Source: Sporopachydermia quercuum (Eukaryota). From it: 64,000 nucleotides of DNA. The position numbers were made by a program, and so were the translations under genes. Below are positions 4,531 through 28,480 of this stretch, in pieces (positions within the stretch are counted from its first letter, which is position 1; the number at the start of each line of letters is the position of its first letter). The notes below the pieces were generated by a model. It was not told where the DNA came from, made no database searches, and was given only the letters and a program-made list of their open reading frames with translations. The stretch is taken from NCBI GenBank assembly GCA_001599295.1, contig BCGN01000009.1:1-64000 (forward strand), read 5' to 3'.

Positions 4531-6744
4531 ATGTACATACACTTACATGATAGCAGTCCATCATCTGATTTAAACTACTACTCTTCACCTAACAGTTGCT
4601 TTTCAAACGATACTCATCCAAAAACTAGTTTCGAAGACCACCGTTTTTCGGATATCGACATAGCTCCTCCAAGGCTCCAAACTAATGATAATTTGAGAGT
4701 GTATTCTATTGAAGACTTTGATAGTAACCTATCGTTTGATTTTAATATGATGCCATTAATGAATATAGACAGTTACTCAAGTGGGGCGTTAAATACTACT
4801 GCTGCAACTCTAAGTTATGAAAGATCAAATTCAAGTAATTCGCTGTCTCCTCTGTCTGAATCTTCAGTTAGACATATGCTTGAACTGAAGACAATTTCCA
4901 ATAGTGATAAGTCGAATATTAAGAATGGACAAGCTTCTTTTGACTCGAACATGTCTCAAATGACTCCTCAGTCGTTTCCTCAAGATGAACTGATGAAATG
5001 CTTATCATATCAGTTAGAACAAATAGATTCCTTACTTGATCTAAACAGGCTGAAGACTATACCGTTTGCAAGATATTTAGTGGCCTATTTTTCTGGCTCT
5101 GTCAATAAACATTTACCGATTATCCATTTCATGCAGCTAGAACAATTTTACAATGATATAAAGAAGAATTGTGAGAATATGAATGAATTGGAACAGGAAA
5201 CATCTATTGGTGTTGCAGAAAACTTATCAAATGTCAACATGTTGTTAAATTTTTCGCTTATACTAATTTTGAGTGCTTTTGGGTGCCTATATAATCTTGA
5301 GCATGCAAGGTCGCTGTTATTGAGAAACTCTTGCTGCAATCTCATTACAGTTCTAGAAGATAGTTTATCAAGTAACCCTGATAGCTCCAACCTTCCATAT
5401 TATCAAGCAAAGTTGTTTTTATTGATTTTTGACTCATTCTCGGACGATTTATCGTTGGTCGAATCATGTTTAGACAACGAGTCAGATTATAACAGAATTA
5501 CTGATTCGATAGAACGGCTACATTTTCAAAGATGTGATACTAATGGTTGGTTAGATTGGATTACTGAGGAATCCTATCATAGACTTTTTTGGGGTTACAT
5601 TATTCAGATGTCTTGTCTGAATATGTCATACAATCGTTTATCTCTATCGTCTGCAGGAAGCCTGAGTTATCCAATGCCCGAAGATGATGAACTATGGAAT
5701 GCACAGAATGAAGAAACTTGGAGAAGTTATATGGAAAAAGAGGATAATAGTAGTTTAATTGCTTCAGAATCAGTTATTTGTCCAGTATTGTTTGCACTTT
5801 TACCTGCCCCATCACTTACTAATAATTCGAACAGGAATTTGCAAACAACCTCGCTAAAGTCTAACTTGTCCAAAACAGAAAATGTGTCATCGCTATCAGC
5901 ATATATTCTATCCCATGCGATTATGGCTCACATTTCTTCAATTTCAAGGTTTTACTCCTGGGGTCATATTTCAACCGTTCAGTCAACAGAATTTGAATCT
6001 CTATCAAAAGTTTTTCTCGAACAGGTAGAAATGATCTTCTCGCGCTGTCCAAGCTCTTTATCGTCGTCATCAAATAGTATTCAACATTTGAGCCAAGATA
6101 TTAGCCCTTTATCAAGCGCATGCATTGTTTTGATTATATCGCGAGTCCAGCTATATTCATTTTCACCCTTGAAGTCTATACTTGCTGAAGAGGTGTCTAC
6201 TGAATACGCCAGTATTATTAACAATTCGCTTAAGTACAATATTCAATTGAATATTGAAACATTGAATGAATGCTTTGATTTCTTGTTTAGCCCTGTGAAA
6301 ACAATGGGACTTGAGATGATAAAAGCTTTTGGATCCATTCATTTCAGTCCTGAACGTGTTATTGCTATTTTTCATACAGGTTTTTATTTATCATACTGGA
6401 TACATAAATTTGAACTTGAAATTGATATCGTGAAAAATGAAGTTCTTCAGGAGCAAAGAGAATTGTTTGATAAGGTAATTGAGAGTTTGAAACAGTTCGA
6501 TCATAAAGAGAATGAGTACAAGCAAATCAAAACTAAAGGAATAGAAGGCCCAATTAATATAAATAGAAGAAGCGTAGCTAGTAACATTTTGTGTATTTAT
6601 TGCGATATACTGGATGGTTGCATATGGGGAATAAGTAAAAGGATTATAGATGTTTTCAAGGTATTACAGGAAAGGTATAGAGAAATTAAGAACGAGGAAA
6701 TATGCAAAAGAGTCGAACATATCAATCAACAAGAGGTTCAGTGA
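4531..6744 (+). CDS. Fungal_trans-domain regulator lacking a recognisable DNA-binding domain; paralog of 9826-12636
   Basis: First ATG at 4531. Shares blocks with the C2H2 TF: ARYL..HLPIIH, ILSAFGCLYNLE, WITEESYHRLFW, PEDDELWNA, IWGISK. No Cys/His finger seen in the ORF or immediately upstream. Confidence 0.75.
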   Translation: MYIHLHDSSPSSDLNYYSSPNSCFSNDTHPKTSFEDHRFSDIDIAPPRLQTNDNLRVYSIEDFDSNLSFDFNMMPLMNIDSYSSGALNTTAATLSYERSNSSNSLSPLSESSVRHMLELKTISNSDKSNIKNGQASFDSNMSQMTPQSFPQDELMKCLSYQLEQIDSLLDLNRLKTIPFARYLVAYFSGSVNKHLPIIHFMQLEQFYNDIKKNCENMNELEQETSIGVAENLSNVNMLLNFSLILILSAFGCLYNLEHARSLLLRNSCCNLITVLEDSLSSNPDSSNLPYYQAKLFLLIFDSFSDDLSLVESCLDNESDYNRITDSIERLHFQRCDTNGWLDWITEESYHRLFWGYIIQMSCLNMSYNRLSLSSAGSLSYPMPEDDELWNAQNEETWRSYMEKEDNSSLIASESVICPVLFALLPAPSLTNNSNRNLQTTSLKSNLSKTENVSSLSAYILSHAIMAHISSISRFYSWGHISTVQSTEFESLSKVFLEQVEMIFSRCPSSLSSSSNSIQHLSQDISPLSSACIVLIISRVQLYSFSPLKSILAEEVSTEYASIINNSLKYNIQLNIETLNECFDFLFSPVKTMGLEMIKAFGSIHFSPERVIAIFHTGFYLSYWIHKFELEIDIVKNEVLQEQRELFDKVIESLKQFDHKENEYKQIKTKGIEGPININRRSVASNILCIYCDILDGCIWGISKRIIDVFKVLQERYREIKNEEICKRVEHINQQEVQ

Positions 6745-7276
6745 AACCTGACAATCAATTTTTAAACGTTCTACTTTCAAACATCAATGTAGATTGATTC
6801 TGAGTAGAATAATTTAATCGTTGAATTATTTTAGTTTGATGAATTCATAAACTTTCTTATATAAATATTTAATGCCACACAAAGTTAAAGTTAGATTAGC
6901 AAAGATTAGTTTAAAGCTTACCTCAAAGCTTAACCTTAAAGGTTTATTTTTTTGTAGTTCTCCCACATATTGCCTATTTCGAGTATAATGGGGTACTTAT
7001 TATCGGTGGAACAAACTACTTTCCAATTAAGAGATCCTATTTCTTTATAGTCAAAAGGAAGAAGAAAAAAAAGTCATATAAATGCTGATAAGTCAATGAT
7101 CTTTGACAGTACTTCCAATAATGGTTTATAACTTTATAGCTCGTTAACTAACAATATTATTAGGAAAAACAAAAATAAAAGGTTATACACACCTTTTTCT
7201 GGTATTTGCAGCTTTCAATATTTACTGCATTAAGAATAACATTTTGAGATTCACTATATCTTCAGCTATTGNTACA

Positions 7277-8203
7277 ATGAGAATTGGTGTTACAGGATCA
7301 ACAGGTTTCACTGGAACTCATATCATCGTTGAGCTACTCTCCAGGAACTATCAAGTAATAGGCTATAGTCGCAGTCCTAGTAAAATTGGAACTCATAGCA
7401 GCTTTGAACCTTTCCCTATTGATTTCTACACTGTAACCATTGGAGAGCTTGCCAAAGCATTTGAGAAAATTGACATCATCATTGATTGTTTTGGACCCCA
7501 TTCTAGCGGTGTTGAAGGTGTTATTTACGAGCCATACATTGAAGTATCAAGAAAACTTCTTTTGGCTGCTAAGATCGCCGGCATCAAATACTACATAAAA
7601 ATAGGTGGTTCTGGATCATTATATTCACCGGAAAAGAAGTTTACTTACGCAGTTGATGATGAACAGTTTTGGGAAGCGTATAGAAGAGGAATGGGAGATG
7701 ACGAAGCATATGTAGTCCAACTAGAAGAACGATTAGGTTACATTGGNTCTTATTTCAGAAACTACCGTAATGCTAGACTGAAAATCAAGAACAACCAAGA
7801 TTTGGATGAGAGTGATAGAAAGGCTATTGATATAATTGAAGGGGTTCATTATAAGAAGGATCCTGCTTATGCATTTATATGTGCTTGCAGAACAACATTT
7901 ATGTTCTTCCTTGATAATAAAAGTTTTGAATGGACGTTTGTCAGCCCCAGTACTTTGTACAGAAGTGGTTTGCCCAGCAATAGTGAAATCAAAACAACTA
8001 TAGACTTTCTTCCTGTTAGACAGGGGACGTCAGTTTTTGGTAACCCTATGGAGGGGAATTTATATGGTATAACAGCACCTGATTTGGCCAAGGCTATTGT
8101 TGATGAAATGGAACAAAAGAAAATGAAATGGAAGCATTGGTCTGCATATACTGAAGAGATGCCAGAAGAGCCATATAAGAGCTGCCTCACTATTTCCAAT
8201 TAG
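7277..8203 (+). CDS. NAD(P)-binding Rossmann oxidoreductase (atypical SDR, biliverdin reductase B/YwnB-like)
   Basis: MRIGVTGSTGFTG nucleotide-binding start, IGGSGSL, WTFVSPS, GITAPDLAKAIVDEME. First ATG at 7277. Confidence 0.75.
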   Translation: MRIGVTGSTGFTGTHIIVELLSRNYQVIGYSRSPSKIGTHSSFEPFPIDFYTVTIGELAKAFEKIDIIIDCFGPHSSGVEGVIYEPYIEVSRKLLLAAKIAGIKYYIKIGGSGSLYSPEKKFTYAVDDEQFWEAYRRGMGDDEAYVVQLEERLGYIXSYFRNYRNARLKIKNNQDLDESDRKAIDIIEGVHYKKDPAYAFICACRTTFMFFLDNKSFEWTFVSPSTLYRSGLPSNSEIKTTIDFLPVRQGTSVFGNPMEGNLYGITAPDLAKAIVDEMEQKKMKWKHWSAYTEEMPEEPYKSCLTISN

Positions 8204-8762: not shown

Positions 8763-9779
8763 ATGAAGCTTCTGGGANTCACTGGTTCTAATAATACCTN
8801 AAATTTCTTATGGATCTCGACGATGGAACCAACTATAGATGATTCGAAAATAGGATTCATTGGCCTTGGTGTCATGGGATATCAAATGGCCAAAAACATT
8901 GCAAAGAAAAAGCCAAATTCTCATTTATTTATTTTCGATATTAACACTTATGCTAGTCACAAATTTAAAGATGAATTACCTGATAACCTAATCACCATCT
9001 GCTCTTCATGTCGAGAAGTAGCAGAAAACACTAAATTATTATTTTCTATTGTTCCTGAAGGTTCCCATGTTAAACAAGTTTATCTTGAACCAATTACTGG
9101 AATTTCTAGTGCAAAGAATATTTCAAATATTAACAGATTATTCATCGACTGCTCAACTATTGATCCTGCTACTTCAATTGATGTGGCTAACAAAATAAAA
9201 AGTATTTCAAATAACAGGGCTTGCTTTTACGATGCCCCCGTATCTGGTGGTGAAATTGGAGCAGCCAATGGTACTCTGACCATAATGGCTGGTATCGATG
9301 AGAATGATTCAAGGGCAAAATATGTTAAATCACTATTATTGCTAGTTGGCAAGAACATATACTTATGTGGCAAACAAGGTAATGGCTTGTCAGCTAAACT
9401 ATGCAATAACTATACTTCTTCCATCATAACCGTGGCAACATCTGAAGGACTCAACATGGCTATCAGACTTGGAATTGATAAGAAACTTGCGTCTGAAATT
9501 TTCTCAAGAAGTACTGCTGGAAGCTGCATCAATGATAAATTTAATCCTGTCCCAGGAATAGATCCCAAAAGTCCTTCAAGTAATGGCTATAATGGAGGAT
9601 TTAAAATTGAACTAATGAGAAAAGATCTCAAGCTAGCACTCGAAAGTGGAAATGAAGTTAATGCAAGTAATGAACTTGGGAAATTTGTTTTCAGTTTTTA
9701 TGATAAAGCTGCAGATTTGAAGGAGTACCGTGGTCTTGATTACCGAGTTATTTATAAATACATAGGAGGTGTAGAGTAA
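8763..9779 (+). CDS. Beta-hydroxyacid dehydrogenase (3-hydroxyisobutyrate dehydrogenase family)
   Basis: IGFIGLGVMG, DCSTIDP, DAPVSGG, catalytic-Lys motif AKLCNN, GGFKIELMRKDL. The true start may be the ATG at 8823. Confidence 0.9.
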   Translation: MKLLGXTGSNNTXNFLWISTMEPTIDDSKIGFIGLGVMGYQMAKNIAKKKPNSHLFIFDINTYASHKFKDELPDNLITICSSCREVAENTKLLFSIVPEGSHVKQVYLEPITGISSAKNISNINRLFIDCSTIDPATSIDVANKIKSISNNRACFYDAPVSGGEIGAANGTLTIMAGIDENDSRAKYVKSLLLLVGKNIYLCGKQGNGLSAKLCNNYTSSIITVATSEGLNMAIRLGIDKKLASEIFSRSTAGSCINDKFNPVPGIDPKSPSSNGYNGGFKIELMRKDLKLALESGNEVNASNELGKFVFSFYDKAADLKEYRGLDYRVIYKYIGGVE

Positions 9780-9825
9780 TCATCAAGTACCGAGTCAATC
9801 TATCTAAATATATAACAAGAGTAGG

Positions 9826-12636
9826 CTATATACAACTAATATTAGAACTTTTTTCATTTCTGCATCTCTCCCCTATAAGCCTGAATATCTTGGCCATAGT
9901 AACGGTTATTCCCCAAACCCACGTATGATCTAACATATTCGCCCAAAGTTCAACCAAAGTCCCAGCTAACGAAAAATTACCATCTTGCAGTAATTCATCT
10001 ACTTTCCTTTTATCATTGTAGTTAAAGTTAATTACATCAGCTTCACATAGTAATTTCATACACTCAAAAATAACTTCATTCTCAAGATTAGTAAATGAGC
10101 GAAACTTGATTGATAGCTCTGCAATGTGGATGTATCTTGATAATAGTAAGATTGGTTCCCAACCATTCAATGCATGATCCACAGACCAATTAATTGCTGC
10201 AAATCTTCTGATTAACATATGCCCTGCTCTAACCGGAATCTGTAAAGCATCTAACGAGATAAACAAGACTCTTCTTATTAAATTACCTTTAACAAACAAT
10301 GTTGCTGAAAAGTAATCGTTCAAAACTCTCTCAATATTATTGTCGAATTCTGCATTACTACATGCCAGAATAGATTTCATAGTATAAGATATTTGGAACA
10401 GTTTCACTTGTAATGATCTAGATATTGAAATACTATTGAATAGAATCGGATGCTTATCACAAGAAGTTAAGGCATTGCCAATCGGGATTTTTGAGTATAA
10501 TATTGAGTCAGTTCTTCTGAAAGTTCTTTCAGCTTGTTTGAAGGAGCACTCAACAAGAAATTCAAATTCTTGAGATACATTTGCTGCGCCAATGAATTTA
10601 GATTCACAGCACCATCTATAAGATTGAGATACTGAAGTAATATGATGTTTAACACAGCAAAACAATATATACGTAGCAAACTGGGGTAAACTTTCAAAAT
10701 CTGGTTCAGCACCTATTTCAAATGTAACATAGCCCATTAATTGTTTGAAAGAAGCTGGTAAAATGTCATCATCATCTATCAATCTTTTCCATTCATGCTT
10801 ATCCTTTGTATTCCAAATCCCTTCACATTCAGGTAAATCTAAAGGAATAGCAACCAAATCTAAATGAACATCCACATTATAGATATATGAAATATTAGAC
10901 ATATTGATAAGAATACACCAGTACAGTCTTTTGAAGGATTCAGTTATGATCCACTTTTTAAATGACGTGCTATCTCTTTTTGAATATCTTCTACAAATTA
11001 TTTTACTTGTTTTGTTGAAAAATGACTGTAGACTTTTTGCTCGATGTATATTCTCTGGATGTCCACTCCAGCAATCCAACATCCAACATAAATATCTACT
11101 TTGAATAAGTGACAAGGTAAAACTATTAACTTCAAGCTTTTTTTCCTTTTCTAGTTCATCAGTCATCTTGAGAACACATGCCTGTAGACTATTTGATTTG
11201 TCTTTCTCAAGACAATAAAGTGCACCCATTGCAGACATGGCTAAAATAAGTAGACAGTCACCAACTGATTGAATTTCGGTTCCCGCTTGTTCTTCATTTT
11301 GTTTTGCTGAGAAATCAAAATTGAAGAAACTTTCATGTAGCATTGGCAAGTGAATTATAAAAGATGAATAACAAACATTCAAATATCTTGCTAATGGACA
11401 AATTTTAAGTGCCTTGATTTCAGGTATAAACTGTGGAAACCTTTTGGTCAATATATTGAAACATATGTCTTGTTTCTTGTGTGAGAACTGGATATTGCTA
11501 GATTTGCTCATAGGTATGAACAATTCAGAATTGATGAACAGTGCTGGGGCACTTGAATTGGAACTGACATGAGACTTTGAGTTCGAAGAAAGAGTTGATG
11601 TTGATTTTCTGAAAATAAGTGTGAATGGTTGTTCTTGATATTGAAATTTGCACCTTGGTGGTAGCATCAGTTTAGGATTATAAAGAAAATTTGATATGCT
11701 TATGGCAAATGGCGATTGAAATGTATTCCCAGGTGACGTACAAGACAATGCAAAGTTGTTTAGTCCATACAATTCAAATGAAGTATCAATAGTGTCATCA
11801 GAGTCAGAGGAACTAGTTGAAAATGGGAATTCATTGTTCTGATTGGGGTTTGACGGAAATGATAAATCTTTGAAAGTATATGAATTATATGAAGAAGTAT
11901 TTGAGTCTATTGAAGAATCAGATGCCGTTGATGAAGATAAAGAAAGGGCAGTGGAGGAGATGAGCGAATTGACAGACTCTTCAATGGTATCCAATTTTGG
12001 AGAACTCTCAGGCTTCCATAAGACTAAGTCCATATTATCAGATGGTTCAGTTGTGATAGTAGAATTATCATCATTACTGTTGATAACTGAAGCACTAGCG
12101 GAGTTGTATGAAGGTGAAGTTGAAGTTCTATTATCAGTATAATTGTTATCTCGATTCAAATTATCAGCAGTAGATAGCCCTTCTATTTCCTTTACTTCAG
12201 CAGTTCTTTCAATAGCAATATCTGTTGCTATTTTTTTACTACTTCTGGCCGTCGTTTCACTATTTGAAATAGCTAACGATTCTTCAAACTGTGCCTTATA
12301 CCTCATTTGAATATTGACACCAATACAGCACCTTTTATGTCTAACAACAACATCTTTTCTACTGAAATTTGCTCCACACTTATCACATTTGAAAGGCCTT
12401 TCCGAAGTATGAATTCTGGTATGTCTTGTGAGATGTTCAACTCGTTTAAAAGTTATCCCACATATGTCGCATATATGTTGTTTTGGTTTTCTACCTCTTT
12501 TCCTTTTCTCCAATCCTTCTATCATTCCCGTGTTATCGCTTCTATTTCTATTCAAACTAGAAGAGTGTTTATTCTTGCTTATGTACAACCTGAATGTTGA
12601 TTGCATGGAGTATTGCTCTTCATGTGATTGAACCAT
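9826..12636 (-). CDS. Zinc-finger plus Fungal_trans transcription factor (Adr1/Mxr1/AmdX-like architecture), 936 aa
   Basis: Fingers CDICGITFKRVEHLTRHTRIH-TSERPF-KCDKCGANFSRKDVVVRHKRC, preceded by basic KRKRGRKPK; Ser-rich linker; C-terminal HLPMLH..WIITESFKRL..LPECEGIWN domain. Confidence 0.9.
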   Translation of the reverse strand: MVQSHEEQYSMQSTFRLYISKNKHSSSLNRNRSDNTGMIEGLEKRKRGRKPKQHICDICGITFKRVEHLTRHTRIHTSERPFKCDKCGANFSRKDVVVRHKRCCIGVNIQMRYKAQFEESLAISNSETTARSSKKIATDIAIERTAEVKEIEGLSTADNLNRDNNYTDNRTSTSPSYNSASASVINSNDDNSTITTEPSDNMDLVLWKPESSPKLDTIEESVNSLISSTALSLSSSTASDSSIDSNTSSYNSYTFKDLSFPSNPNQNNEFPFSTSSSDSDDTIDTSFELYGLNNFALSCTSPGNTFQSPFAISISNFLYNPKLMLPPRCKFQYQEQPFTLIFRKSTSTLSSNSKSHVSSNSSAPALFINSELFIPMSKSSNIQFSHKKQDICFNILTKRFPQFIPEIKALKICPLARYLNVCYSSFIIHLPMLHESFFNFDFSAKQNEEQAGTEIQSVGDCLLILAMSAMGALYCLEKDKSNSLQACVLKMTDELEKEKKLEVNSFTLSLIQSRYLCWMLDCWSGHPENIHRAKSLQSFFNKTSKIICRRYSKRDSTSFKKWIITESFKRLYWCILINMSNISYIYNVDVHLDLVAIPLDLPECEGIWNTKDKHEWKRLIDDDDILPASFKQLMGYVTFEIGAEPDFESLPQFATYILFCCVKHHITSVSQSYRWCCESKFIGAANVSQEFEFLVECSFKQAERTFRRTDSILYSKIPIGNALTSCDKHPILFNSISISRSLQVKLFQISYTMKSILACSNAEFDNNIERVLNDYFSATLFVKGNLIRRVLFISLDALQIPVRAGHMLIRRFAAINWSVDHALNGWEPILLLSRYIHIAELSIKFRSFTNLENEVIFECMKLLCEADVINFNYNDKRKVDELLQDGNFSLAGTLVELWANMLDHTWVWGITVTMAKIFRLIGERCRNEKSSNISCI

Positions 12637-13321: not shown

Positions 13322-13750
13322 ATGTCTACAGAAGAAACGTTGAAAGAAGCTCACACAAGGTTGTTTGAAGCAGGGCTTAAGACAAGATATTCTGTCGTAG
13401 GAAAAGAATATGTTGATAGGGCTCTCGAAAATGGGTCATCAAAGTTTTCGAGGCCAATGCAAGAATTAGTGACAGAAGTGTGCTGGGAATCAATTTGGAA
13501 TAGACCAGGGCTTTCAAAGAAACAAAGATCTTTACAAAATGTTGCTATGTTATGCGCTCTGAATAGAAATGCCGAACTGGCTGCTCATACTCGTGGAGCA
13601 ATTGTCAATGGGGCTACACCGGAGGAAATTAGCGAGACAATTCTACAAGCATCAATATATTGTGGTATGCCTGCTGGTATTGCAGGTTTTAAAGTAGCCG
13701 AACAGGTCTTAAGAAAAATGAAAGAAGAAGGTTATAATATAGAAATCTAA
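13322..13750 (+). CDS. Carboxymuconolactone decarboxylase (PcaC/AhpD-like) family protein
   Basis: GLKTRYSVVGKEYV, WESIWNRPGLSKKQRSL, ELAAHTRGAIVNG, IYCGMPAG: the characteristic PcaC pattern. Confidence 0.9.
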   Translation: MSTEETLKEAHTRLFEAGLKTRYSVVGKEYVDRALENGSSKFSRPMQELVTEVCWESIWNRPGLSKKQRSLQNVAMLCALNRNAELAAHTRGAIVNGATPEEISETILQASIYCGMPAGIAGFKVAEQVLRKMKEEGYNIEI

Positions 13751-14423: not shown

Positions 14424-16025
14424 ATGTCCACAGATATTAAGGAGTTTGCTCCTTATTCTCATTTGATTGCATCAGGCTTTTTGGTACTCCTAATATGCCT
14501 GTTTTTCGTGGTTAGTAACAAGAAATCTAAAAGAAGATTTTTACCTCCTGGTCCGAAAGGTATTCCGATACTGGGTAATATGCTCGATTTGGCTGACTCA
14601 GATCAAGTAAGATATAAAGTCATTAAATGGACAGAAGAATATGGGGAAATCTTTTATACAAGAATTGGACTTACCGACTATGTCTGGCTTTCTTCACCAA
14701 AAGTTGTAAAAGAATTAATGGACAAAAAATCATCAATTTATTCCTCGCGAGCTGAATTACCATTTGCTCAAGATATTGCTAGTGGAGGTAAGAGACAGTT
14801 ATTCATGCAATATGGACAAGATTGGAGGAATGTCAGAAAAGTTTCCCATAATTTGCTCAATTTGAAAACAGCTATTAGATATGAACCTGTTCAAGACTTT
14901 GAATCTAAACAAGTAGTCTATGAGCTCTTGAAGTTCCCTGACAAGTTTTATCAAACAAATCGTCGATACAGTGCGAGTGTCATTATGTACATTGCATACG
15001 GTGTTAGGTTCGATAGTATTGATGATCCGGTGATGAAAGAAATTTATGAAGTACTTGATAACTTAACAGAAATGACAGCGCCTGGTGCCCATGCAGTTGA
15101 TAGCTTCCCTCAATTGAAATGGCTTCCAGAGTGGCTACTGGGTAATTGGAAATCTAAAGCCAAGCAGCATTTTGACCATGACTCAAAGATTTACAAAAAA
15201 CTATACATGGAAATGAAAGAAAAAATCAAAAAAGGAACAGCTAAAGAATGTTTTGTCAAGTCGTTTATTGAGAATAACACAATTGGTCAAGGCATTGATG
15301 ATCTGCTTGGCTCATACACCTGTGGAGGATTACTAGAAGCTGGCAGCGAAACAACAAGTTCTACCATCAATAATTTCATTTTAGCCATGACATTAAACCC
15401 AGAAGTCGTTAAAAAGGCTCAAAAAGAATTGGATGAGGTGGTAGGAACTGACCGTCTGCCTTCATGGGAAGACGAAAGTCAATTACCTTATATTAGAGCG
15501 ATCATCAGAGAAACTTTGCGATGGAGGCCTGTGAACAAATTCGGTATGACGCATGCTACTTCTCAAGAAGATTGGTACAATGGGTACTACATTCCTAAAG
15601 GTGCTGTTGTTGTGCTTAATTGGTGGGCCATTCACATGAACCCTAAACAGTGGGCCAATCCCTGGGAATTCATTCCAGATAGATACTTGAATCATACTGA
15701 TACATCAGCTGAGTCTATAAATGCTTCTGATCCTTACAAACGAGATCATTTCGCGTATGGCGCAGGTAGAAGAGTATGTCCTGGGGTACACCTTGCAGAA
15801 AAATCATTGTTTATCAATGTTGCAAGAACTTTGTGGGGATTCAATATAACCAAAAAATTAGATTCAAATGGAAAAGTAATTGAGCCTGATTTAGCCACTA
15901 TTAGAGGATTTCTAACTCAACCAGTTGAATTTGAGTGTAGTATTGAAGTTAGGTCTCCTAAGCACGAAGAGGTCATAATAAACGAATACAATTTGTCTAG
16001 GAAAGAGGGAATCAACTATTATTGA
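14424..16025 (+). CDS. Cytochrome P450, CYP64-clan-like
   Basis: N-terminal TM, LPPGPKGIP hinge, I-helix EAGSETT, ETLR (ExxR), FIPDRY, heme motif FAYGAGRRVCPG. Confidence 0.95.
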   Translation: MSTDIKEFAPYSHLIASGFLVLLICLFFVVSNKKSKRRFLPPGPKGIPILGNMLDLADSDQVRYKVIKWTEEYGEIFYTRIGLTDYVWLSSPKVVKELMDKKSSIYSSRAELPFAQDIASGGKRQLFMQYGQDWRNVRKVSHNLLNLKTAIRYEPVQDFESKQVVYELLKFPDKFYQTNRRYSASVIMYIAYGVRFDSIDDPVMKEIYEVLDNLTEMTAPGAHAVDSFPQLKWLPEWLLGNWKSKAKQHFDHDSKIYKKLYMEMKEKIKKGTAKECFVKSFIENNTIGQGIDDLLGSYTCGGLLEAGSETTSSTINNFILAMTLNPEVVKKAQKELDEVVGTDRLPSWEDESQLPYIRAIIRETLRWRPVNKFGMTHATSQEDWYNGYYIPKGAVVVLNWWAIHMNPKQWANPWEFIPDRYLNHTDTSAESINASDPYKRDHFAYGAGRRVCPGVHLAEKSLFINVARTLWGFNITKKLDSNGKVIEPDLATIRGFLTQPVEFECSIEVRSPKHEEVIINEYNLSRKEGINYY

Positions 16026-17623: not shown

Positions 17624-18969
17624 TTATTCAATATCTTCCATTACTTCGTTCATCATTTTAGCAATATTTAAATGGCTATTGGGATCGTTTTTCAACATAT
17701 CAAAAAACTCATTTCTTTGCTTCGAAGAGATTTCATCATCACTATGAAGTCTCAATTTATTTTCGATGCTTTGAACGTTGGTGTAATTTACAAATGCATT
17801 TCTTCTTACTGTTGCATATTTTTCCAAAAGCTCATCGGCGTCTTCAACTTTATTGCTGAATATCTTTATCAAGCAAGTACCAAGGGCGGCAGAGTCCAAG
17901 AGACCTGTCGTTAACCCTAATCCACCAATAGGATTGTTAGACTAAAAATGTTAGCAATAAGCAACTAAAGTTTCAATGAATTCCACAAAGTAAACAAAAA
18001 ACTTACATGTGCAGCATCACCACATAATATGACTCTATCTTTCTTCCACTCTTTGGCACATCGTTGATGAGCCCAGTAAGGGGAGCAAGATAACAACTCA
18101 TACTCCAAGGGTCTTGGTCCAGGGAGAAACATTTCATACTTTTCTTCAACACTATTAGGTATATCTTTTTCCGGAGTATCTGCAGGAACTCCATAGGCAA
18201 CTCTCCATATATTTTCCTTTTTAGGTCCGGTTCTAGATATTACTGCCCAATGATCATTATCAACTATCATATTTGCAGGACCAAAGCCTCCAAACTTTTC
18301 AAAGTCGTATCTGACATTTGTTGCAACAAATCTAAAGTCACTCCAAGTGAATCCTTCGTATGGAATCATTAGAGCATGTCTTACTCCAGAACCTGCACCG
18401 TCAGCAGCAATCAAATAATCACAAGAGTAGAATGTTTCACCATTGGCTCCAATTGTTAATAATTCGGCTTTCTTATTATCTTCAGTTTTAGAAGTAACAC
18501 CAACAACTCTTTCGCCAAAGCGTAGCTCAAAATTTGGATACTTTCTGGCGTGTTCAAGGATTAGAGCAGCAAGTTCTGGTTGTCCGAGATGAATACCGGC
18601 AAAAGGATATTTAACTTGACCTTTGGGAACTAAAGATAAATTCATTCGGGCCAGCTCTACGTCTCCCTTTGCAAAAGGAGTCCTAAACGATACCCCAGTT
18701 CTGTTTGTTTCACCTCTGGTAATCAAATCTTCAGTTATACCAACTTTATCAAACTCATTCAAAACGATAGGCATATACATGATCGCCCTTGGTGATTGGG
18801 CGATTTCTTTTTCAGCTTCAACTACAAGAACTTGTATTCCTTGCTGAACAAGCTTCAAAGCAAGAAATAAACCACTAGGTCCAGCACCAGCTATGATTAT
18901 TTGTCTTGAATCCCTTCTGATGGGTTGATTGTCAGGTATTCTTGGTTTGGTATTAGCAAGAGTAGGCAT
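17624..18969 (-). CDS. Class A FAD-dependent monooxygenase (aromatic hydroxylase/MhpA-like), 2 exons: 18969-18007 and 17941-17624, about 426 aa
   Basis: GAGPSG, AADGAGSGVR, RVILCGDAAH. A 65-nt intron (18006-17942; GTAAGT..GCTAAC..TAG) joins GDAAH to SNNPIGGLGLTTGLLD, completing the conserved GD motif. Confidence 0.92.
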
Positions 18970-19669: not shown

Positions 19670-20563
19670 TCAGTCTTTTGATGTCAAAAATTCTAAATGA
19701 AAAGGTGCTCTAGCTGCTAAGGCTTTGGCTCCTAAATCAAACAACTTGCTTTGTTCTTCGCCCATCCATTGAGGTTGCAACTTTCTCAATGGAGCCTCTA
19801 AATCAGTCATTGTATTGGGAGTAATAAATATTCCTTTACCGTGTAATTCTGTATCAACAATAGTCTGGACTAAAGCTTCAGCAACCATCTCGGGGGTATT
19901 TATTGGCAAATCACCCCATGCTTCTGTAGTCTCATCACTAAGTGTGGTTTTGGTCATCCAAGGAACAATATTGTTAACTCTAATACCATACAATACTCTG
20001 GATACTTGACTTAAAGTACGAATAAATCCAGTTGCACCATGTTTTGCTGCTGCGTATCTGTATATTGGAAAAGCTGGATGATAAGCTGCAGCAGATGTAG
20101 TAAAATTAATACTTTTGTTCTCTTGATTTTCTTCTATTTTTGACTCTTTATTCAAGTAATGAACAGCAAGTTTAGCTGTATTCATCAAGCCTTTGAGATT
20201 GACGTCTAGGAGCTTATAGTTGGGTTCCACATAATCCCCATTCTCGTCTTTTATCTCATCCAAAAAGTCAATATTCTTTTCGGGTAATCCAGCATTGATC
20301 AAAACATGGTGTATAATGTTCTCAGCAAACGCAGTCTTAAATGCAGCAGATAAAGAAGCCCAGTTTGAAACATCAGTTTGGATAAACTGTTCTTTTGGCA
20401 AAGGGGACTGATTAGAAGATAAATCAAGGTTAACGACAATACCCTTGTTTGCAGTGATAATTTTTGCTGCTTCTCTACCAATCCCCGAGCTTGCACCAGT
20501 AATGAGTACCACTTGATCCTTTAGCTTAGGAAGCAAATTTTTCTTCCAAGCAATATTAGCCAT
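19670..20563 (-). CDS. Short-chain dehydrogenase/reductase
   Basis: TGASSGIG, INAG, DVNLKG, catalytic YAAAK, PWMTKT. Confidence 0.92.
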   Translation of the reverse strand: MANIAWKKNLLPKLKDQVVLITGASSGIGREAAKIITANKGIVVNLDLSSNQSPLPKEQFIQTDVSNWASLSAAFKTAFAENIIHHVLINAGLPEKNIDFLDEIKDENGDYVEPNYKLLDVNLKGLMNTAKLAVHYLNKESKIEENQENKSINFTTSAAAYHPAFPIYRYAAAKHGATGFIRTLSQVSRVLYGIRVNNIVPWMTKTTLSDETTEAWGDLPINTPEMVAEALVQTIVDTELHGKGIFITPNTMTDLEAPLRKLQPQWMGEEQSKLFDLGAKALAARAPFHLEFLTSKD

Positions 20564-21388: not shown

Positions 21389-22350
21389 ATGACAACTTAC
21401 ACTATTTCTGATAATGAGTTTACAGCTCTCCAAAATAAAAATGTTGTAATTACAGGAGGAGCTGATGGAATTGGAAAAGCCACTGTTGAACTGGCTGTTA
21501 GTATGTTACTTCAAGTTTTGAGTCACAGAATACTTTATGTTTGAATTTTCACCTAACAATTGTGTTAATAGCCTACGGTGCCAATGTCGTATTTATTGAT
21601 ATCAATAGGAAGAAGGGTGAACTTTTCACCAAAGAGCTTGAAAATCTCAAGAATGAGCATAAAGGAAAGTTTTTGTTTCTTCAGTGCGATGTTTCTTCGT
21701 GGGATGATTTAGAAAAGGCATTTAAGCAAAGTGCACAGTTCTTGTCCACTATTGATACAGTAATCGCTAATGCTGGTGTTGGAGAAATAGGAGATTTATT
21801 TGATTTCGGTGATGAAACAAGCAAATCTGAGGGTATTTCTGCTCCAAACATTTCAACTATCAATATCAACCTTTTGTCACAAGTGTATGCAGTTCGCCTT
21901 GCTGCCTATTATTTTGAAAAGTTCAATATTAAAGGCAATATTGTTCTTACTGGTTCAATTGCCAGTATGATTGAAACACCACCATTACATCTCTATTGTG
22001 CTTCCAAGGCAGGATCTCTGGGATTAACAAGATCAATAAGAAATGAATCTGAAAAACGTAACTTTACTATCAATTCAGTTTTGCCTTGGATGACCAGGAC
22101 AAGCATGGTGCCAGAAGCTTTAGACAAGCTTTGGGGAGACCTACCAGCCAATGAACCAGTTGATATTTCTAAGGCATTGTTATTATCAACTGCAAGAAAA
22201 GGAGTCAATGGCAAAGGATTTTTAGTTGTTGGAGGTGAAATTATTGATATTGAAGAAGGATTGGATAAGAGTAGGCCTCACTGGATGACCTCTAAGGTTG
22301 CAGCTGCATTACATAAAGGACAGGTTTTGATGGGGATCGAAAAAGATTGA
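21389..22350 (+). CDS. Short-chain dehydrogenase/reductase, 2 exons: 21389-21500 and 21572-22350, about 296 aa
   Basis: Exon 1 supplies TGGADGIG, which is missing from the ORF track. Intron GTATGT..CTAAC..TAG is phase-compatible. NAG, YCASK, PWMTRT present. Paralog of the divergent SDR (both have WGDLPxN). Confidence 0.92.
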
Positions 22351-22907: not shown

Positions 22908-24425
22908 ATGCTCAATTTCTATGCGTTTTTTGCAGTAATAGTAGTTTTACTACTAAAAACAGTTTTGGACAGGTATAATTTCAACAAGAAGTATAATTTA
23001 CCCCCAAGAGTACCAGGAATTCCAATATTTGGTAATACATTTCAATTACCTCCTACTCAACAAGGTCCACATTGCAGAGAGCTGGCTAAGAAGTATGGTG
23101 AAATGTTTACCATTAAACTAGGTCAGCAAACTTGGGTTTTTCTCAACAGTTCGAGAGTTGTTAAGGCTTTATTAGAAAAGCGATCGGCAATATATTCCAG
23201 TAGACCTTCTTTCCCAATGACTCAAGATATAGTTTCAGGAGGCGGCAGAATTGTTCTCATGGAATATAATGAAAAATGGAAACAATTGAGAAAAATAATG
23301 CACGGAATTTTGAATAACAAACAATCAGATATATTCAAACCATTTCAAGATTTAGAATCAAAAGCGTTACTGCTCAATTACTTACAGAATCCTGAAAAAT
23401 GGTATCTCCATAATGGTCAATATTCTAATTCTGTTATCATGAGTGTAGTCTTTGGTATAAGAGTGAATCCAGAAAACAAGGACACAGCTCAACTATTTGA
23501 AACTATTGAAGAATTCTTAGAACTTCAGCAACCAGGAGCAACACTAGTTGATGGATTTCCTGTATTGGCTAAACTACCAAATTTCCTTCAATGGTGGAGA
23601 CCAAAGGGTAAACGAATTCATGATAAAACAGTGAAGGTTTATCAAAGACAATTCGACTTGCTAGAAGAAAGAGTTAAAAACAAAACTCAAAAACCCTGCT
23701 TCATTACTCAGTTCTTGCAAGAGGAAAAGAAATATTCCTTTGATTATAACCAAAAGTTATTCTTGGCTGGAACATTGATGGAAGCAGGTTCTGATACCAC
23801 TAAAGTAACCTTAGGCCAAATGATAGCTGGTGCGGCCACTAGTACTGACTGGATAGTCAAAGCAAGGAAAGAATTAGATATGGTTTGTGGATCACATGGG
23901 GAAAGATTACCCGGATGGGAAGATGAACATAAGTTGCCTTATATCAAAGCTGTGGTTAAGGAAGCATTCAGATGGAGACCAAATATTGCAGAGATTGGAG
24001 CTCCTACAATGTTGACAAAAGATGATAAGTTTGAAGGATACTCATTTCCTGCTGGAACAGTTTTTACTTGGAACGCCTGGGCAATTGCTTTGGATGAAGC
24101 AGAGTACGAACAACCGGAGAGATTTTGGCCAGATAGATTTTTGAATGAAGATCTTGATAATCCTTTAAAAGGACACTGGGCTTTTGGACCTGGTAGGAGA
24201 GTCTGTGTTGGATATAACGTTGGTCAGCAGAATGTGTTTATAAGCGCAGCCAGATTATTATACTGTTTTGATTTTATTGAAGATAAGAAGGAACCTGTAG
24301 ATACTATGTCCATTCCTCAGATAACTAAAGGAAGAGCTCCTTTCAAAGTTATAATCAAATCAAGAGGTCCAGAGTTTGAAAATCTGATTAGAAGCGAATG
24401 TGGTGACACATTGAATTTTTCTTAG
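22908..24425 (+). CDS. Cytochrome P450, CYP64-clan-like (second paralog)
   Basis: TM anchor, LPPRVPGIP, EAGSDTT, EAFR, PERFWPDRF, heme motif WAFGPGRRVCVG. Confidence 0.95.
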   Translation: MLNFYAFFAVIVVLLLKTVLDRYNFNKKYNLPPRVPGIPIFGNTFQLPPTQQGPHCRELAKKYGEMFTIKLGQQTWVFLNSSRVVKALLEKRSAIYSSRPSFPMTQDIVSGGGRIVLMEYNEKWKQLRKIMHGILNNKQSDIFKPFQDLESKALLLNYLQNPEKWYLHNGQYSNSVIMSVVFGIRVNPENKDTAQLFETIEEFLELQQPGATLVDGFPVLAKLPNFLQWWRPKGKRIHDKTVKVYQRQFDLLEERVKNKTQKPCFITQFLQEEKKYSFDYNQKLFLAGTLMEAGSDTTKVTLGQMIAGAATSTDWIVKARKELDMVCGSHGERLPGWEDEHKLPYIKAVVKEAFRWRPNIAEIGAPTMLTKDDKFEGYSFPAGTVFTWNAWAIALDEAEYEQPERFWPDRFLNEDLDNPLKGHWAFGPGRRVCVGYNVGQQNVFISAARLLYCFDFIEDKKEPVDTMSIPQITKGRAPFKVIIKSRGPEFENLIRSECGDTLNFS

Positions 24426-25335: not shown

Positions 25336-27149
25336 ATGGGACTCGGTATTAAAGAACCCAAAACTTCTGGTCATACTCCAGGCACTACGTTCCTCGATGA
25401 AGATAATAGCAAAGAGTTATCGGAAGACCTAAAACAAACGTTGAAAACTGATCCAAAGAATCCAAATATTATCTTGGTACCTCAACCTACTGATGATGTT
25501 AACGATCCTTTAAATTGGCCAAAATGGAGAAAAAATGTCTGTTTTGGTGCTCTTTGTTTTGGTACTGCAGTGGTATGTGCCGTTGGTCCAATGTTATCAT
25601 CTGCCCTAGTCTCGCTTTCGGTTGAATTTGATGTTGGAATGTCGTCAATTGCGCAACTGAATTCACTTCCAATTTTAACGAACGCTCCTTCTATTTGGTT
25701 AGGAGCAGCAGTTATGCCATTCTACGGTAAAAGACCTGTTTGCTTGTTATCTTTATTAGTCGTTGCTGTTACTTCTATCTGGTGTGCTAAAGCACAATCT
25801 TATAATAGTTTGTTAGCTGGTAGAGCAGTAATGGGTCTTGGAGTTGGACCGTAAGTTACAAGAGCCGTAATTATAGAATCATTATGTTCCTGAGGTTGTA
25901 TGTTCTACTAACTAGATCATTAATAGATTAGAAGGTATTGTTACTGGAACAATTGCTGATTTATACTTTGTTCATGAAAGGGGATTTTATACTGCTGTAT
26001 GGGTATTCTGTCAGCTATTCCCCACAAATTTGTCACCAGGTATGATTAGCATATTGATTGATTTCTATTCATTTATTCGACTATACTAACCTAATTTTTT
26101 TAGTTATCTGTTCATTCATTATTGAAAATCTAGGCTGGAGATGGGCATTCTGGGTATTATTGATAGTTTCATCGGTTTCATTCTTACTATGTCTTCTTCT
26201 AAGTCCTGAAACGCACTACTACAGATATAATGAAATAGACGATGTTGATGCAACTACAGAAGGTACTAAGCATGCAGACAAGATCAATAATAATTCTGCT
26301 GAAACTTCTATTAAACCATCTGTTAATATGGTTGAGTGTATATCTCAATCGCCATCAACAGAAGATGTAGCATCTCAGATTATTAGCCCTGACTCCTACA
26401 CTTACACTCAGAGATTAAAGCTTTGGAGAAGACAAAAGACTGATAATATTTCTTTCTGGATGTCACTTGCAAGACCCGCAATTTTACTATGCTATCCAAC
26501 AATTGGACTCGCATTCTTTGGTTTTGCTATGGCTGTTAACTGGGCTGTTGTTTATTCATTAACTGCTGCACAAGTATTTACTGCACCACCTTACAACTTT
26601 ACAGTTATTCAGACTGGTTTGGTTTATATTTCACCGTGTGTTTGGGTTTTAATTGTTGCTCCAATTGCTGGTCCTTTGAGTGATTGGATTGCCAAAACTT
26701 TTTCCAAGAAGAATAAGGGTATATATGAACCTGAATTCAGATTGGTGATCGTTGTATTTTTACTGATATTTGGAGTCTTTTCATTTACAGGTTTTGGATT
26801 AAGTGTTACAGCTAAAAACCATTGGTTTGGTCCAGTTTTCTTCTTCGGTATGGTTAGTGGAGCTTCAGTATTTGGTAACACTGGTTATATTGCTTATGTT
26901 GTAGATGCTCATAAGACGGTAGCTGGAGAAGCGATGGTTACATTCACTGCATTCAAATCATTCTTAATTTATGGATTTTCTTGGTTTATTAACGATTGGG
27001 TAACTAACCAAGGTGTTAAGAATACCTTTGGTACATTAGCAGGTTTAAATACAGCAATCTGTTTATTGTCTGTTCCTGCTTATATTTTTGGCAAGAGACT
27101 TAGAAAATGGATTAGTGGCTGTTGGTTGGATAAATTCCAGTCACAGTAA
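25336..27149 (+). CDS. MFS transporter (DHA1/HOL1-like), 3 exons: 25336-25850, 25927-26039, 26104-27149, about 557 aa
   Basis: PQPTDDVNDPLNWP, YGKRP, a small middle exon encoding TIADLYFVHERG, GWRWAF, PEFRL. Both introns are GT..ACTAAC..TAG and keep frame. Confidence 0.9.
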
Positions 27150-27511
27150 TTAGCTTTGTCTGGATTAGATATTAATGATTAATTGTGACGCTGGTTTGTT
27201 ATGAATTTAAAAACTCAAGTAGTATGAATTGCTTTATTTTAATAAAGATTTTTAAAAGGGCCCTTGGATCGTAATGTTGGTGGCTATTCAAATAATACTG
27301 TAATATCAAAAGAAAAAAGTACAATTAATATAATACCCAGCACCAACAACCCATCTATTACTCTTAGAATAATAAAACAAATTAATATAATGCCACTCAT
27401 AGGTCTATTGAAACTGGTAACAGGAATATATTATAGCTACTTCATTATTGATTTGCTTACATTTTTCAATCATTCGTTTTGAAACAATTAATATTTATTA
27501 CTTACTCATAG

Positions 27512-28480
27512 TTATATAATGCAACCAGGAAAGAATTTATCCTTGTTTTTGCTTGCCCATGCATAGTCATGAGCTAAGATAACCTCAACTTCACAGTCAA
27601 ATATACCCTTCGAACTCAAAAGGCGTATCATCTCCACAGTATGCTCTGCTAGCTGTTTATCCTGATGAATACATACCAGGTAGCCTTTGCCGTCTAACCA
27701 GGTAGAAAATTCTGTGTCTCCTCTAAGCAAAGAAACATTATGGCACGCATCTCCTGCTAAATATAAATATTTGCTATCTGATACTCTTACTAGTAAATTT
27801 ATATGACCAATGATATGACCTGGGCTGTCGACGACTAGAATTGATCTGTCGTTGAACAAATCTATATACGATAGGTCATAAATCTTACCAGAATTGATAT
27901 CATTTAATTTCAATGTGGTCCATGGTTTATTATCCTCTAATTTACCATATTGAGTTAAAAGTAAATTTTGATTCCCTTTAGATATCAATTGCCTAGTTAT
28001 TTCAGTCATGGGGAGCTCTATTGTCCTATCACTAGGTAAAGTGTTAGAATCGAAATGTGATGCTGAATGATAAGGAAGACCCTGTTGAAGTAGTTGATAA
28101 GAACCAGGCCCTACAATAAATTTTGACTCTTTAAAATCACTGGGAGTTCCAATATGATCATAATGGAGGTGACTAAGGAAAACGTATTTAATATCATTGG
28201 TAGAAATGCCACCTTTCTGGAGTGAATCTTTCACATCTGGGGTTGTAATTATAGGTCTTCTAGTTTCTATATGAGCACTGAGTTCAGGGATATAATCTGA
28301 TAACTCCCTTTTTAAACCAAGATCAAATATGATATTGCCATTTGTGGGATGTTGTACAAGGAAACTTAGCGATGGACATAAGATTTTTATTGATTTATCA
28401 GTTTGAGCAGCAGAGAACATCCATTCTGGTAGTGATAGATAGCCTGCTTCAAGAGCCGAAACTTTCACAATTTCATGCAT
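27512..28480 (-). CDS. Metallo-beta-lactamase-fold hydrolase (AHL-lactonase-like)
   Basis: FDLG, metal motif SHLHYDHIG (HxHxDH), SPGHIIGH, AGDACH, ILAHD. Confidence 0.9.
   Translation of the reverse strand: MHEIVKVSALEAGYLSLPEWMFSAAQTDKSIKILCPSLSFLVQHPTNGNIIFDLGLKRELSDYIPELSAHIETRRPIITTPDVKDSLQKGGISTNDIKYVFLSHLHYDHIGTPSDFKESKFIVGPGSYQLLQQGLPYHSASHFDSNTLPSDRTIELPMTEITRQLISKGNQNLLLTQYGKLEDNKPWTTLKLNDINSGKIYDLSYIDLFNDRSILVVDSPGHIIGHINLLVRVSDSKYLYLAGDACHNVSLLRGDTEFSTWLDGKGYLVCIHQDKQLAEHTVEMIRLLSSKGIFDCEVEVILAHDYAWASKNKDKFFPGCII

Follow-up and report, generated by a model that had tools for sequence, protein, structure and literature searches.

A thirteen-gene oxidative cluster near an apparent chromosome end of the yeast Sporopachydermia quercuum and its relatives in filamentous ascomycetes

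The first 64,000 nucleotides of contig BCGN01000009.1 of the yeast Sporopachydermia quercuum (assembly GCA_001599295.1; this whole stretch is called the window below) contain, at positions 4531–28480, 13 intact and adjacent genes for regulators, oxidative and hydrolytic enzymes and a transporter. The best explanation of the locus is an intact, co-regulated metabolic regulon of 13 genes near a chromosome end, in an AT-rich and intron-poor ascomycete of budding-yeast type. Judged by the relatives of its genes, the cluster appears to represent, in a yeast, an old regulon of ascomycetes that many filamentous species share. As to its function, we favour inducible oxidative catabolism or detoxification, a reading that we hold to be fairly probable as a whole and trust much less in any single step. 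An earlier note, written from the letters alone, had already named the 13 genes, their families and their positions, and both the listing of open reading frames (ORFs) and a Pfam scan of the 15 ORF pieces of 724–28480, which assigned a family to 13 of the 15, agree with it.

The genes are held together, in the first place, by a promoter element. The earlier note had spoken of shared promoter motifs, and a k-mer comparison narrows these down to one heptamer, TACCCCA (TGGGGTA on the opposite strand), found in 8 of 11 cluster promoter regions and in none of 29 background pieces. The window has 13 copies against 3.8 expected, a number reached in none of 100 shuffles, and all 13 lie inside the 24.5-kb span 4175–28697; by our own arithmetic, the chance of the latter is about 4e-6 for copies placed at random over 64 kb. 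Ten copies (at 4175, 6989, 14103, 16257, 19302, 19357, 19398, 22454, 24874 and 28691) stand in promoters, 211–462 bp upstream of eight of the 13 genes; the remaining three fall within coding sequence (10682, 15782 and 18691). The heptamer and the gene content mark the same cluster boundaries, and the element is confined to the cluster, as is expected of a cis-element shared by a co-regulated regulon. Its flanks have weak preferences only and, in the literature, we saw the heptamer only as part of primers. The genes are as follows, with the heptamer placed relative to the start of each gene.

4531–6744, plus strand: TF1, 737 aa, paralogue of TF2; no Pfam match; TACCCCA at −356
7277–8203, plus strand: NAD(P)H-binding protein (PF13460; Pfam), an atypical short-chain dehydrogenase (SDR), NmrA-like; TACCCCA at −288
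8823–9779, plus strand: HIBADH-like beta-hydroxyacid dehydrogenase (Pfam); long ORF from 8763, likely start at 8823
9826–12636, minus strand: TF2, C2H2 factor, 936 aa (Pfam)
13322–13750, plus strand: CMD, carboxymuconolactone decarboxylase family (Pfam, 1.4e-20)
14424–16025, plus strand: P450a, class II microsomal-type (Pfam), anchor gene of the conserved cluster; TACCCCA at −321
16477–17394, plus strand: ABH, alpha/beta hydrolase (Pfam); TACCCCA at −220
17624–18969, minus strand: FMO, class A flavin monooxygenase; exon 1 18007–18969, intron 17942–18006, exon 2 17624–17941; TACCCCA at −333, −388 and −429
19670–20563, minus strand: SDR1, classical short-chain dehydrogenase (Pfam, NCBIfam)
21389–22350, plus strand: SDR2, short-chain dehydrogenase (Pfam); exon 1 21389–21500, intron 21501–21571, exon 2 21572–22350; near-variant ACCCCA at −66
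22908–24425, plus strand: P450b, paralogue of P450a (Pfam); TACCCCA at −454
25336–27149, plus strand: MFS transporter (Pfam); exons 25336–25850, 25927–26039 and 26104–27149, introns 25851–25926 and 26040–26103; TACCCCA at −462
27512–28480, minus strand: MBL, metallo-beta-lactamase-fold hydrolase (Pfam); TACCCCA at −211

The claim that these are contiguous intact genes stands as far as open frames go, but FMO, SDR2 and MFS are not single ORFs: they contain four short introns (one, one and two, respectively), with donors GTAAGT, GTATGT or GTATGA, branch sites resembling (T)ACTAAC and AG acceptors, and splicing restores the frame across conserved motifs. The NmrA-like ORF has one N, at 7747, and is intact as far as that base allows. 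The intergenic gaps within the cluster measure 0.45–0.9 kb and therefore leave no room for further genes. As the earlier note had it, no polyketide synthase (PKS), nonribosomal peptide synthetase (NRPS), terpene cyclase, prenyltransferase or dioxygenase, ring-cleaving ones included, was detected by Pfam among the 15 ORF pieces. The window has a GC content of about 34%, and no tRNA genes were found in its 64 kb. The CTG codons of P450a fall in hydrophobic columns in four of five cases, so that the standard codon reading is adequate.

The second line of evidence comes from other fungi. Scanning metagenome contigs with an alignment of P450a gave 80 loci, many of them, at 1–5 kb, not long enough to reveal neighbours, which were then searched by tblastn with the window proteins, with flanks of 10 kb. 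P450a has 1329 relatives at E ≤ 1e-20; the best 120 are 50–67% identical, and the organism-named ones among those 120 all belong to Pezizomycotina. The conserved core consists of P450a beside an ABH of the RsbQ/PcaD type, usually with an SDR and often with a decarboxylase resembling PcaC. More complete versions also have a second P450, an FMO of the PnpA/HspB type, a HIBADH-type dehydrogenase, an MFS transporter and a factor combining C2H2 fingers with a fungal regulatory domain. Locus L006, of which L007 is a near-identical record, holds nine families within 16 kb: a TF2-like factor, MFS (32–37% identical to the window protein), P450a (62%), an SDR2-like protein, HIBADH-like (44–45%), ABH (44–45%), a second SDR, P450b (56–57%) and the start of an FMO. 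Six families, namely CMD (52%), ABH, a TF2-like factor, P450a, FMO (56%) and an SDR, are found in L027; in L028, P450b and P450a stand head to head, with a fragment of an O-methyltransferase gene nearby. CMD orthologues adjoin P450a in L001 (55%) and L053 (59%), and an NmrA-like fragment (46%) lies beside the P450a orthologue of L002. P450b orthologues are 56–62% identical (L006, L007 and L028), those of SDR2 41–43% (L006, L007 and L009) and those of ABH 42–45%. Counted over the 80 loci, P450a is accompanied by ABH in 16, a TF2-like gene in seven, an SDR1-like gene in six, FMO in five, an SDR2-like gene in four, P450b in four, CMD in three, MFS in two and a HIBADH-like gene in two.

The promoter element recurs along with the genes. 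TACCCCA occurs eight times in L006 (2.8 expected) and ten times in L027 (2.7 expected), mostly in the DNA between cluster genes. It is present in nine of 12 intergenic regions between ABH and P450a, usually as an inverted pair 54–66 bp apart, and the 6.9 kb of these regions contain 16 sites, a density of 2.3 per kb, where the loci as a whole have 0.18 per kb. Some of the loci are near-copies of one another (L019/L020; L024/L025; L015/L017/L033), and with these removed, the element is found in about five of eight independent lineages. Pfam scans of 75 and 59 ORFs from 11 loci brought out a recurrent minimal module, set between housekeeping genes, in which ABH and P450a are transcribed divergently and are joined by an SDR and a carboxylesterase. 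Among the loci with the module (L015, L025, L014, L004, L022 and L001), the neighbours are Nrap, a mitochondrial carrier and TCP-1, and the divergent promoter has paired TACCCCA.

Genomes with an organism name tell the same in fragments. Three mis-fused gene models among the best 120 P450a relatives reveal neighbours: in the models from Neoarthrinium and Neonectria, a HIBADH-like protein is fused to P450a, the HIBADH half (N-terminal in model P0061) being 47% identical to the window protein. The third, Phlyctema model P0038, fuses an SDR to P450a; we rejected it as an orthologue of the window SDRs, its identity to SDR1 and SDR2 being 27–32%. The accessions of P450a and FMO in Xylariales sp. 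AK1849 (KAI0121272 and KAI0121261) are 11 apart, those of P450a and the factor in Phlyctema (KAL3426703 and KAL3426708) five apart, and the corresponding locus tags in Drepanopeziza (L3040_009302 and L3040_009315) 12–13 apart; both proteins of Sphaceloma are on a contig of equal size. In several other genomes, the relatives of P450a and FMO are on contigs of differing size, so the full set is not always together. FMO has 101 relatives at E ≤ 1e-20, the best 57% identical, and the named ones above 40% are from Pezizomycotina. The same module, regulator type and promoter element are present in Leotiomycetes, Sordariomycetes and Dothideomycetes, with P450a also in Eurotiomycetes. The genes thus do co-occur in other genomes, their orthologues being linked in metagenome loci and named species alike; the earlier note would have dropped its idea had they never done so, and on this count the idea survives. 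The set is not a yeast invention: the cluster family across Pezizomycotina had escaped the earlier note. Its opinion that the cluster is not a characterised one holds, as we found no published characterisation of the gene set or of the locus tags of P450a orthologues, with the reservation that the supplements of papers may list the genes among expression data.

The presumed regulator of the cluster is TF2, in which a pair of C2H2 fingers at the N terminus is followed by a long regulatory domain of fungal type. PF04082 goes undetected in it at E ≤ 1e-3, and the orthologue in L006 matches that family at 9e-07. Of 1.8 billion representatives, only 173 matched the C-terminal domain of TF2 in an HMMER search (E ≤ 1e-3). 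The top four belong to the Lipomycetales yeasts Limtongia, Lipomyces oligophaga, Dipodascopsis and Kockiozyma, followed by a “zinc finger protein” of Phlyctema. The first finger has the helix motif KRxEHxxRH in all five aligned lineages, that is, in TF2 and the TF2-like genes of L006, L027, L031/L035 and L037. According to the recognition rules of C2H2 fingers, Arg at position −1, His at 3 and Arg at 6 read GGG, and the R-E-H-R positions of finger 1 fit the TGGGGTA strand; we infer that TF2 would bind TGGGGTA through this finger. The earlier note had counted two regulators, which is right for TF2 but not for TF1 as a zinc-finger factor. TF1 is 26% identical to TF2 over 600 aa (E 1e-29), the match covering the C-terminal two-thirds of TF2, and clearly reads as a finger-less paralogue of its C-terminal regulatory domain; neither a Pfam domain nor a zinc finger was found in TF1, and no finger exon was seen upstream, in 2311–4530. 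Two-finger C2H2 factors stand also beside distant paralogues of P450a, 39–42% identical (L031:6663–6821, L032:371–529, L035:6750–6908 and L037:5311–5535), the one in L037 being an unusual hybrid in which the fingers are followed by a CxxCxxxxxxC stretch resembling Zn2Cys6.

The enzymes were graded against the equivalog cut-offs of NCBIfam and compared with solved chains of the Protein Data Bank (PDB). P450a and P450b are 35% identical to each other, have the Cys-pocket FxxGxRxCxG in their translations and find their nearest solved chains in CYP2R1, CYP1A1 and cinnamate 4-hydroxylase; both are ordinary class II enzymes. For FMO, the best solved chains are PnpA, the p-nitrophenol 4-monooxygenase (6ain, 4.3e-50), and HspB, the 6-hydroxy-3-succinoylpyridine 3-monooxygenase (7da9, 5.7e-43), over residues 22–320; the next solved flavoprotein reaches 3.9e-13 only, and by sequence FMO is clearly a flavin monooxygenase of the PnpA/HspB type. 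Among NCBIfam models, CMD is matched best by PcaDC and PcaC, with 126.7 bits for decarb_PcaC (TIGR02425) over the full length against a cut-off of 155.7, and the nearest solved chain is 4g9q (1e-20). The presence or absence of a CxxC motif separates AhpD-like from PcaC-like proteins; CMD has none in its translation and is on that ground PcaC-like rather than AhpD-like. ABH has the PcaDC fusion as its best NCBIfam model, but with 61.5 bits against the 255.85 of PcaD (TIGR02427), it falls short of the equivalog level of that 3-oxoadipate enol-lactonase. Its best solved relatives are RsbQ-like proteins and the butenolide hydrolases KAI2 and D14, with the 3-oxoadipate enol-lactonase 2xua lower (1.5e-08), and its nucleophile elbow GESTSGMIG conforms to GxSxSxMIG, which we take to be a mark of the RsbQ/KAI2/D14 group.

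The HIBADH-like protein scores 226.5 bits with TIGR01692 (cut-off 291.6) and matches human HIBADH (2i9p) at 9e-48. MBL has the metal motif HLHYDH (HxHxDH); its best models, AttM (70.6 bits against 390) and 4-pyridoxolactonase (55.2 against 325), cover the N-terminal third alone, and the protein resembles the AttM/AiiA lactonases and 4-pyridoxolactonase only weakly. A putative NADH-flavin reductase is among the solved chains nearest to the PF13460 protein, SDR1 has no solved chain at E ≤ 1e-12, and the Atlas assignment of the third MFS exon is MFS, with nothing finer.

Given the resemblance of its enzymes to the ipso-hydroxylases PnpA and HspB, to PcaC and PcaD, and to lactonases, the cluster suggests inducible oxidative catabolism or detoxification of a phenolic or lactone compound, and the substrate class would be a para-substituted phenolic or a butenolide or lactone; the sequence does not allow the substrate to be named. 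Enzymes of the PnpA/HspB type hydroxylate at a substituted carbon para to a hydroxyl, the substituent being lost. The most likely course would be the following: the P450s would hydroxylate the compound, and SDR1, SDR2 and the HIBADH-like enzyme would oxidise the resulting alcohols or hydroxy-acids; FMO would act on a para-substituted phenol or hydroxypyridine and hydroxylate the carbon that carries the substituent, with loss of the side chain and formation of a quinone or hydroquinone; and the flavin-reductase-like PF13460 protein, whose role is a guess, could reduce the quinone. ABH and MBL might open enol-lactone or lactone rings, and CMD might decarboxylate or isomerise a carboxy-butenolide towards products of the 3-oxoadipate type. 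Any fission of an aromatic ring would need an enzyme encoded elsewhere. The MFS protein would move substrate or product, TF2 would switch the genes on through TACCCCA when the substrate or a metabolite is present, and TF1, whose own promoter has the element, could modulate TF2. A fungal orthologue of PcaC, NRRL3_08340 of A. niger, is induced about 240-fold by protocatechuate (PMC10406623).

Several observations weigh against this reading. The same A. niger gene is dispensable for growth on protocatechuate (PMC10406623). All enzymes score below the curated cut-off of the nearest bacterial equivalog, so that none of them can be given a specific activity. A dioxygenase for ring cleavage turned up neither in the cluster nor in the 75 and 59 ORFs of the 11 homologous loci, which makes the self-containment claimed in the earlier note doubtful; its interpretation keeps its ground in that the cluster is co-regulated, co-occurs across genomes, has no biosynthetic core and consists of enzymes with catabolic relatives. 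The perfect heptamer is not found upstream of five of the 13 genes (HIBADH-like, TF2, CMD, SDR1 and SDR2); near-variants precede SDR2 and the HIBADH-like gene, but the region between TF2 and CMD has no CCCC at all, and the binding of TF2 to the element is a prediction. Beside P450a, within the 10-kb flanks, the NmrA-like gene was seen in one of the 80 loci, MBL in none and TF1 in none, the last giving a weak match to the TF2-like gene alone; for these three, position and motif are therefore the whole case for membership in the cluster. Finally, a P450-rich cluster that also has SDRs, a transporter and a regulator is typical of biosynthesis as well, and the MFS homologue of L006 also matches the TRI12 efflux family (1.5e-07); the transporter could work in either direction, and the uptake proposed in the earlier note is a candidate role only.

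A more specific version of the catabolic reading can be stated, tentatively, as a possibility that we consider rather doubtful: the cluster might encode a route, so far not described, by which a para-substituted phenolic or butenolide metabolite of plants or fungi is taken apart, with no classical ring-cleavage dioxygenase encoded in the cluster, and be an ancient ascomycete regulon kept, together with its regulator and cis-element, in a budding yeast. Its enzymes would be a P450, a hydrolase of the butenolide type, a decarboxylase resembling PcaC, a flavin enzyme that hydroxylates at the ipso position, and dehydrogenases for hydroxy-acids, under a C2H2 factor and TACCCCA.

Alternatively, the genes could convert a primary metabolite, for example an aromatic derived from shikimate or an amino acid, into a secreted small molecule, with the MFS protein as exporter and without a canonical core enzyme. 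Two P450s, two SDRs, an FMO, a transporter and a cluster regulator are the usual tailoring set, the TRI12 match of the L006 transporter and the O-methyltransferase fragment in L028 would fit such a cluster, and so would the want of a ring-cleavage enzyme in every cluster version scanned. Against it, neither the window cluster nor the 134 ORFs of the 11 homologous loci contain a core scaffold enzyme (PKS, NRPS, terpene synthase or cyclase, dimethylallyl tryptophan synthase or a known non-canonical core), for four enzymes the nearest relatives of known function (PnpA/HspB, PcaC, PcaD/RsbQ-type and HIBADH) are all degradative, and in many loci the minimal module sits between housekeeping genes; we regard a biosynthetic or tailoring cluster as unlikely.

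If the cluster is catabolic, as we prefer to think, it matches none of the degradative systems that we compared with it. The closest described one in architecture appears to be the hxn nicotinate regulon, the proteins being compared by description only. In A. nidulans, it consists of HxnR and ten hxn genes, and it is patchily present in 14 scattered budding yeasts (PMC8478523). Both regulators carry two C2H2 fingers at the N terminus, and the long stretch that follows in TF2 would be the counterpart of the fungal-specific domain of HxnR; both systems have a predicted G-rich site (GHGGGG for hxn and TGGGGTA for the cluster) and a patchy occurrence in scattered budding yeasts, next to a wide one in Pezizomycotina, that would fit transfer as well as retention (for hxn, PMC8478523). 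Both also combine, in clustered genes, flavin monooxygenases, an SDR and MFS transporters. The enzyme sets differ, however. By Pfam, the cluster has no counterpart of the hxn families named in the accessible text, namely the molybdenum-cofactor hydroxylase HxnS, the old yellow enzyme HxnT, the cyclic imidase and amidase HxnM/HxnN and the 2-oxoglutarate dioxygenase HxnY, and conversely, “P450” does not occur in that text, nor does the part of its gene table covered list a CMD, an RsbQ-type hydrolase or an MBL (PMC8478523); the cluster is hence not the hxn cluster.

The bacterial hydroquinone-type pathways for p-nitrophenol (PnpA) and nicotine (HspB) share with the cluster the monooxygenase subfamily of FMO, but by Pfam, their hydroquinone or 2,5-dihydroxypyridine dioxygenase, semialdehyde dehydrogenase and maleylacetate reductase are not in the cluster. 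With the protocatechuate (pca) branch of the beta-ketoadipate pathway, the likeness lies in the best NCBIfam models, PcaDC/PcaC for CMD and PcaDC for ABH, with scores below cut-off; PcaGH, PcaB, counterparts of the fungal PrcA, CmcA and ChdA, and a cycloisomerase were not detected in the cluster by Pfam. With the ring-cleavage enzymes missing and the PcaC and PcaD scores below their cut-offs, the cluster is not a pca, pnp or hsp pathway. Fungi, moreover, make 3-carboxymuconolactone and not the 4-carboxy form (PMC10406623). The neighbour of the A. niger PcaC orthologue, NRRL3_08341, is an NRPS (PMC12368960), so no homologous cluster is evident around NRRL3_08340. A survey of phenylpropanoid clusters (10.1101/184242) does not mention the gene set in its accessible text, supplements apart.

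A parallel of another kind is provided by CYP5078 and similar orphan families of P450s in budding yeasts, which are shared with Pezizomycotina and scattered among a few wood- and insect-associated or early-branching yeasts, and whose function is unassigned and horizontal transfer suspected (PMC6723986). Kockiozyma (Lipomyces) suomiensis has four CYP5078 copies (PMC6723986) as well as a TF2 homologue. The likeness of CYP5078 to P450a and P450b is one of description only; neither CYP5078 nor AN7359, a gene whose transcript level rose in four or more of five transcriptome data sets for aromatic xenobiotics (PMC11063244), could be tied to either P450 of the cluster. No protein of Ogataea or Ambrosiozyma is among the best 120 relatives of P450a.

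The GC content at third codon positions (GC3) is 0.27–0.33 in the cluster genes, 0.29–0.34 in four flanking genes and 0.43 in a formin gene, and the locus, being like most of its flanking genes in this respect, belongs to this genome. (Over the formin, at 58000–64000, GC rises to 42–49%; the protein has a long proline-rich FH1 region.) The subtelomeric position suggested by the earlier note is plausible. The window starts with 3.4 copies, at 1–37, of an 11-nt C-rich repeat, CTACCTCCCAA, of which one more copy is on the minus strand at 45319–45329, and the cluster-bearing contigs of two sequencing runs, which may be the source of the assembly, end 206 and 233 bases to the left of window base 1. 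CTACCTCCCAA is probably the telomere repeat of Sporopachydermia quercuum, and the repeat-like start and the contig ends together place the cluster about 5–29 kb from the apparent chromosome end. In each of the two runs, either of which may again be the source, one contig covers 8801–28700 without difference.

Between the repeat and the cluster, at 724–2310, lies a GT25-family glycosyltransferase-like ORF with nine Ns and no TACCCCA upstream. The window has 41 single-base Ns (e.g. 838, 7747, 8778 and 62828), spread over 1–8.8 kb and 38–63 kb, with none between 8801 and 38067; they put X into the GT25-like gene, the NmrA-like gene and the formin. On the right, the earlier note's description of decayed DNA is correct for an ORF-poor flank, there being no stop-free frame above 140 aa in 28.5–35.6 kb and 37.2–47.8 kb, and for one relic: the GH31 alpha-glucosidase fragment at 37930–38349 (minus strand, Pfam 7e-18) is a decayed gene, and the 10.6 kb in which it lies have no long open frames. 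Of the 45 frames scanned, however, it alone has a family match; the other 44 have none in Pfam, and 28.5–35.6 kb, between MBL and a permease gene, holds no recognisable relic. Beyond the ORF-poor DNA follow the permease, a 1789-aa protein and the formin.

How the cluster came to be in a yeast can be read in two ways. In the P450a tree, a long branch leads to the window protein, which stands at the base of one clade of Pezizomycotina, with a support of 90 in the SH-like approximate likelihood ratio test (SH-aLRT). In the FMO tree, it pairs with a Logan protein and groups with Sordario-, Eurotio- and Dothideomycetes, apart from Pezizomycetes (SH-aLRT 90), but a topology that leaves the window outside a clade of Pezizomycotina is still acceptable by the approximately unbiased (AU) test (p = 0.184). 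The intron that follows GDAAH in FMO, at 17942–18006, has its position in common with L027 (13643–13703) and with the paralogue of L028 (about 9296–9368), both loci of Pezizomycotina type; a second intron of the L006 and L027 genes, after residue 62, is absent from the window gene. Taking together GC3, the shared intron position, the Lipomycetales relatives of TF2 and the trees, an old transfer and an ancestral retention with wide loss are both compatible with the data.

A transferred cluster need not be a working one, and the genes could be a horizontally acquired Pezizomycotina cluster adrift in a subtelomere, with open frames but no longer a functioning pathway. The named relatives of P450a (among the best 120) and of FMO (above 40%) are indeed from Pezizomycotina, the FMO tree hints at a nested position of the window protein among their classes, apart from Pezizomycetes, a telomere-like repeat is near, and the DNA next door is ORF-poor and holds the GH31 relic. 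Drift, however, is at odds with the state of the genes: all 13 frames are open, all four introns canonical, and the catalytic motifs (the Cys-pocket of the P450s, HxHxDH of MBL and GxSxS of ABH) have been kept, as has the element at eight genes, including the three that are absent or seen once in other loci. Furthermore, GC3 is like that of most flanking genes, and neither gene tree establishes transfer (P450a is basal on a long branch, and p = 0.184 in the AU test for FMO). The nearest relatives of TF2 are in Lipomycetales. We consider drift very improbable. Yeast subtelomeres do gather paralogous metabolic genes, and MBL, TF1 and the NmrA-like gene are absent or seen once in homologous loci, but a chance neighbourhood of unrelated oxidoreductase genes in such a gene-family-rich region is already contradicted by a motif confined to the cluster and by up to nine gene families recurring together in other fungi with the same motif, and we give it practically no credence.

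Metabolic gene clusters and P450s are both scarce in budding yeasts, which makes an oxidative regulon of 13 genes an unusual find in one of them. What makes the cluster notable is that regulator, operator and enzymes appear to be conserved together across subphyla, in the manner of a fungal pathway-specific regulon. It points to an unstudied pathway that is widespread in plant- and wood-associated fungi, and the yeast copy, with few introns, compact promoters and a candidate operator, offers a practical entry point to the substrate, and a place in which to test a C2H2 regulator together with the cis-element that accompanies it across subphyla. Should the doubtful, more specific reading of an ancient route for phenolic or butenolide metabolites prove true, the regulon could be dissected genetically in a budding yeast. 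Either way, the cluster bears on how such gene clusters persist in, or move between, fungal lineages.

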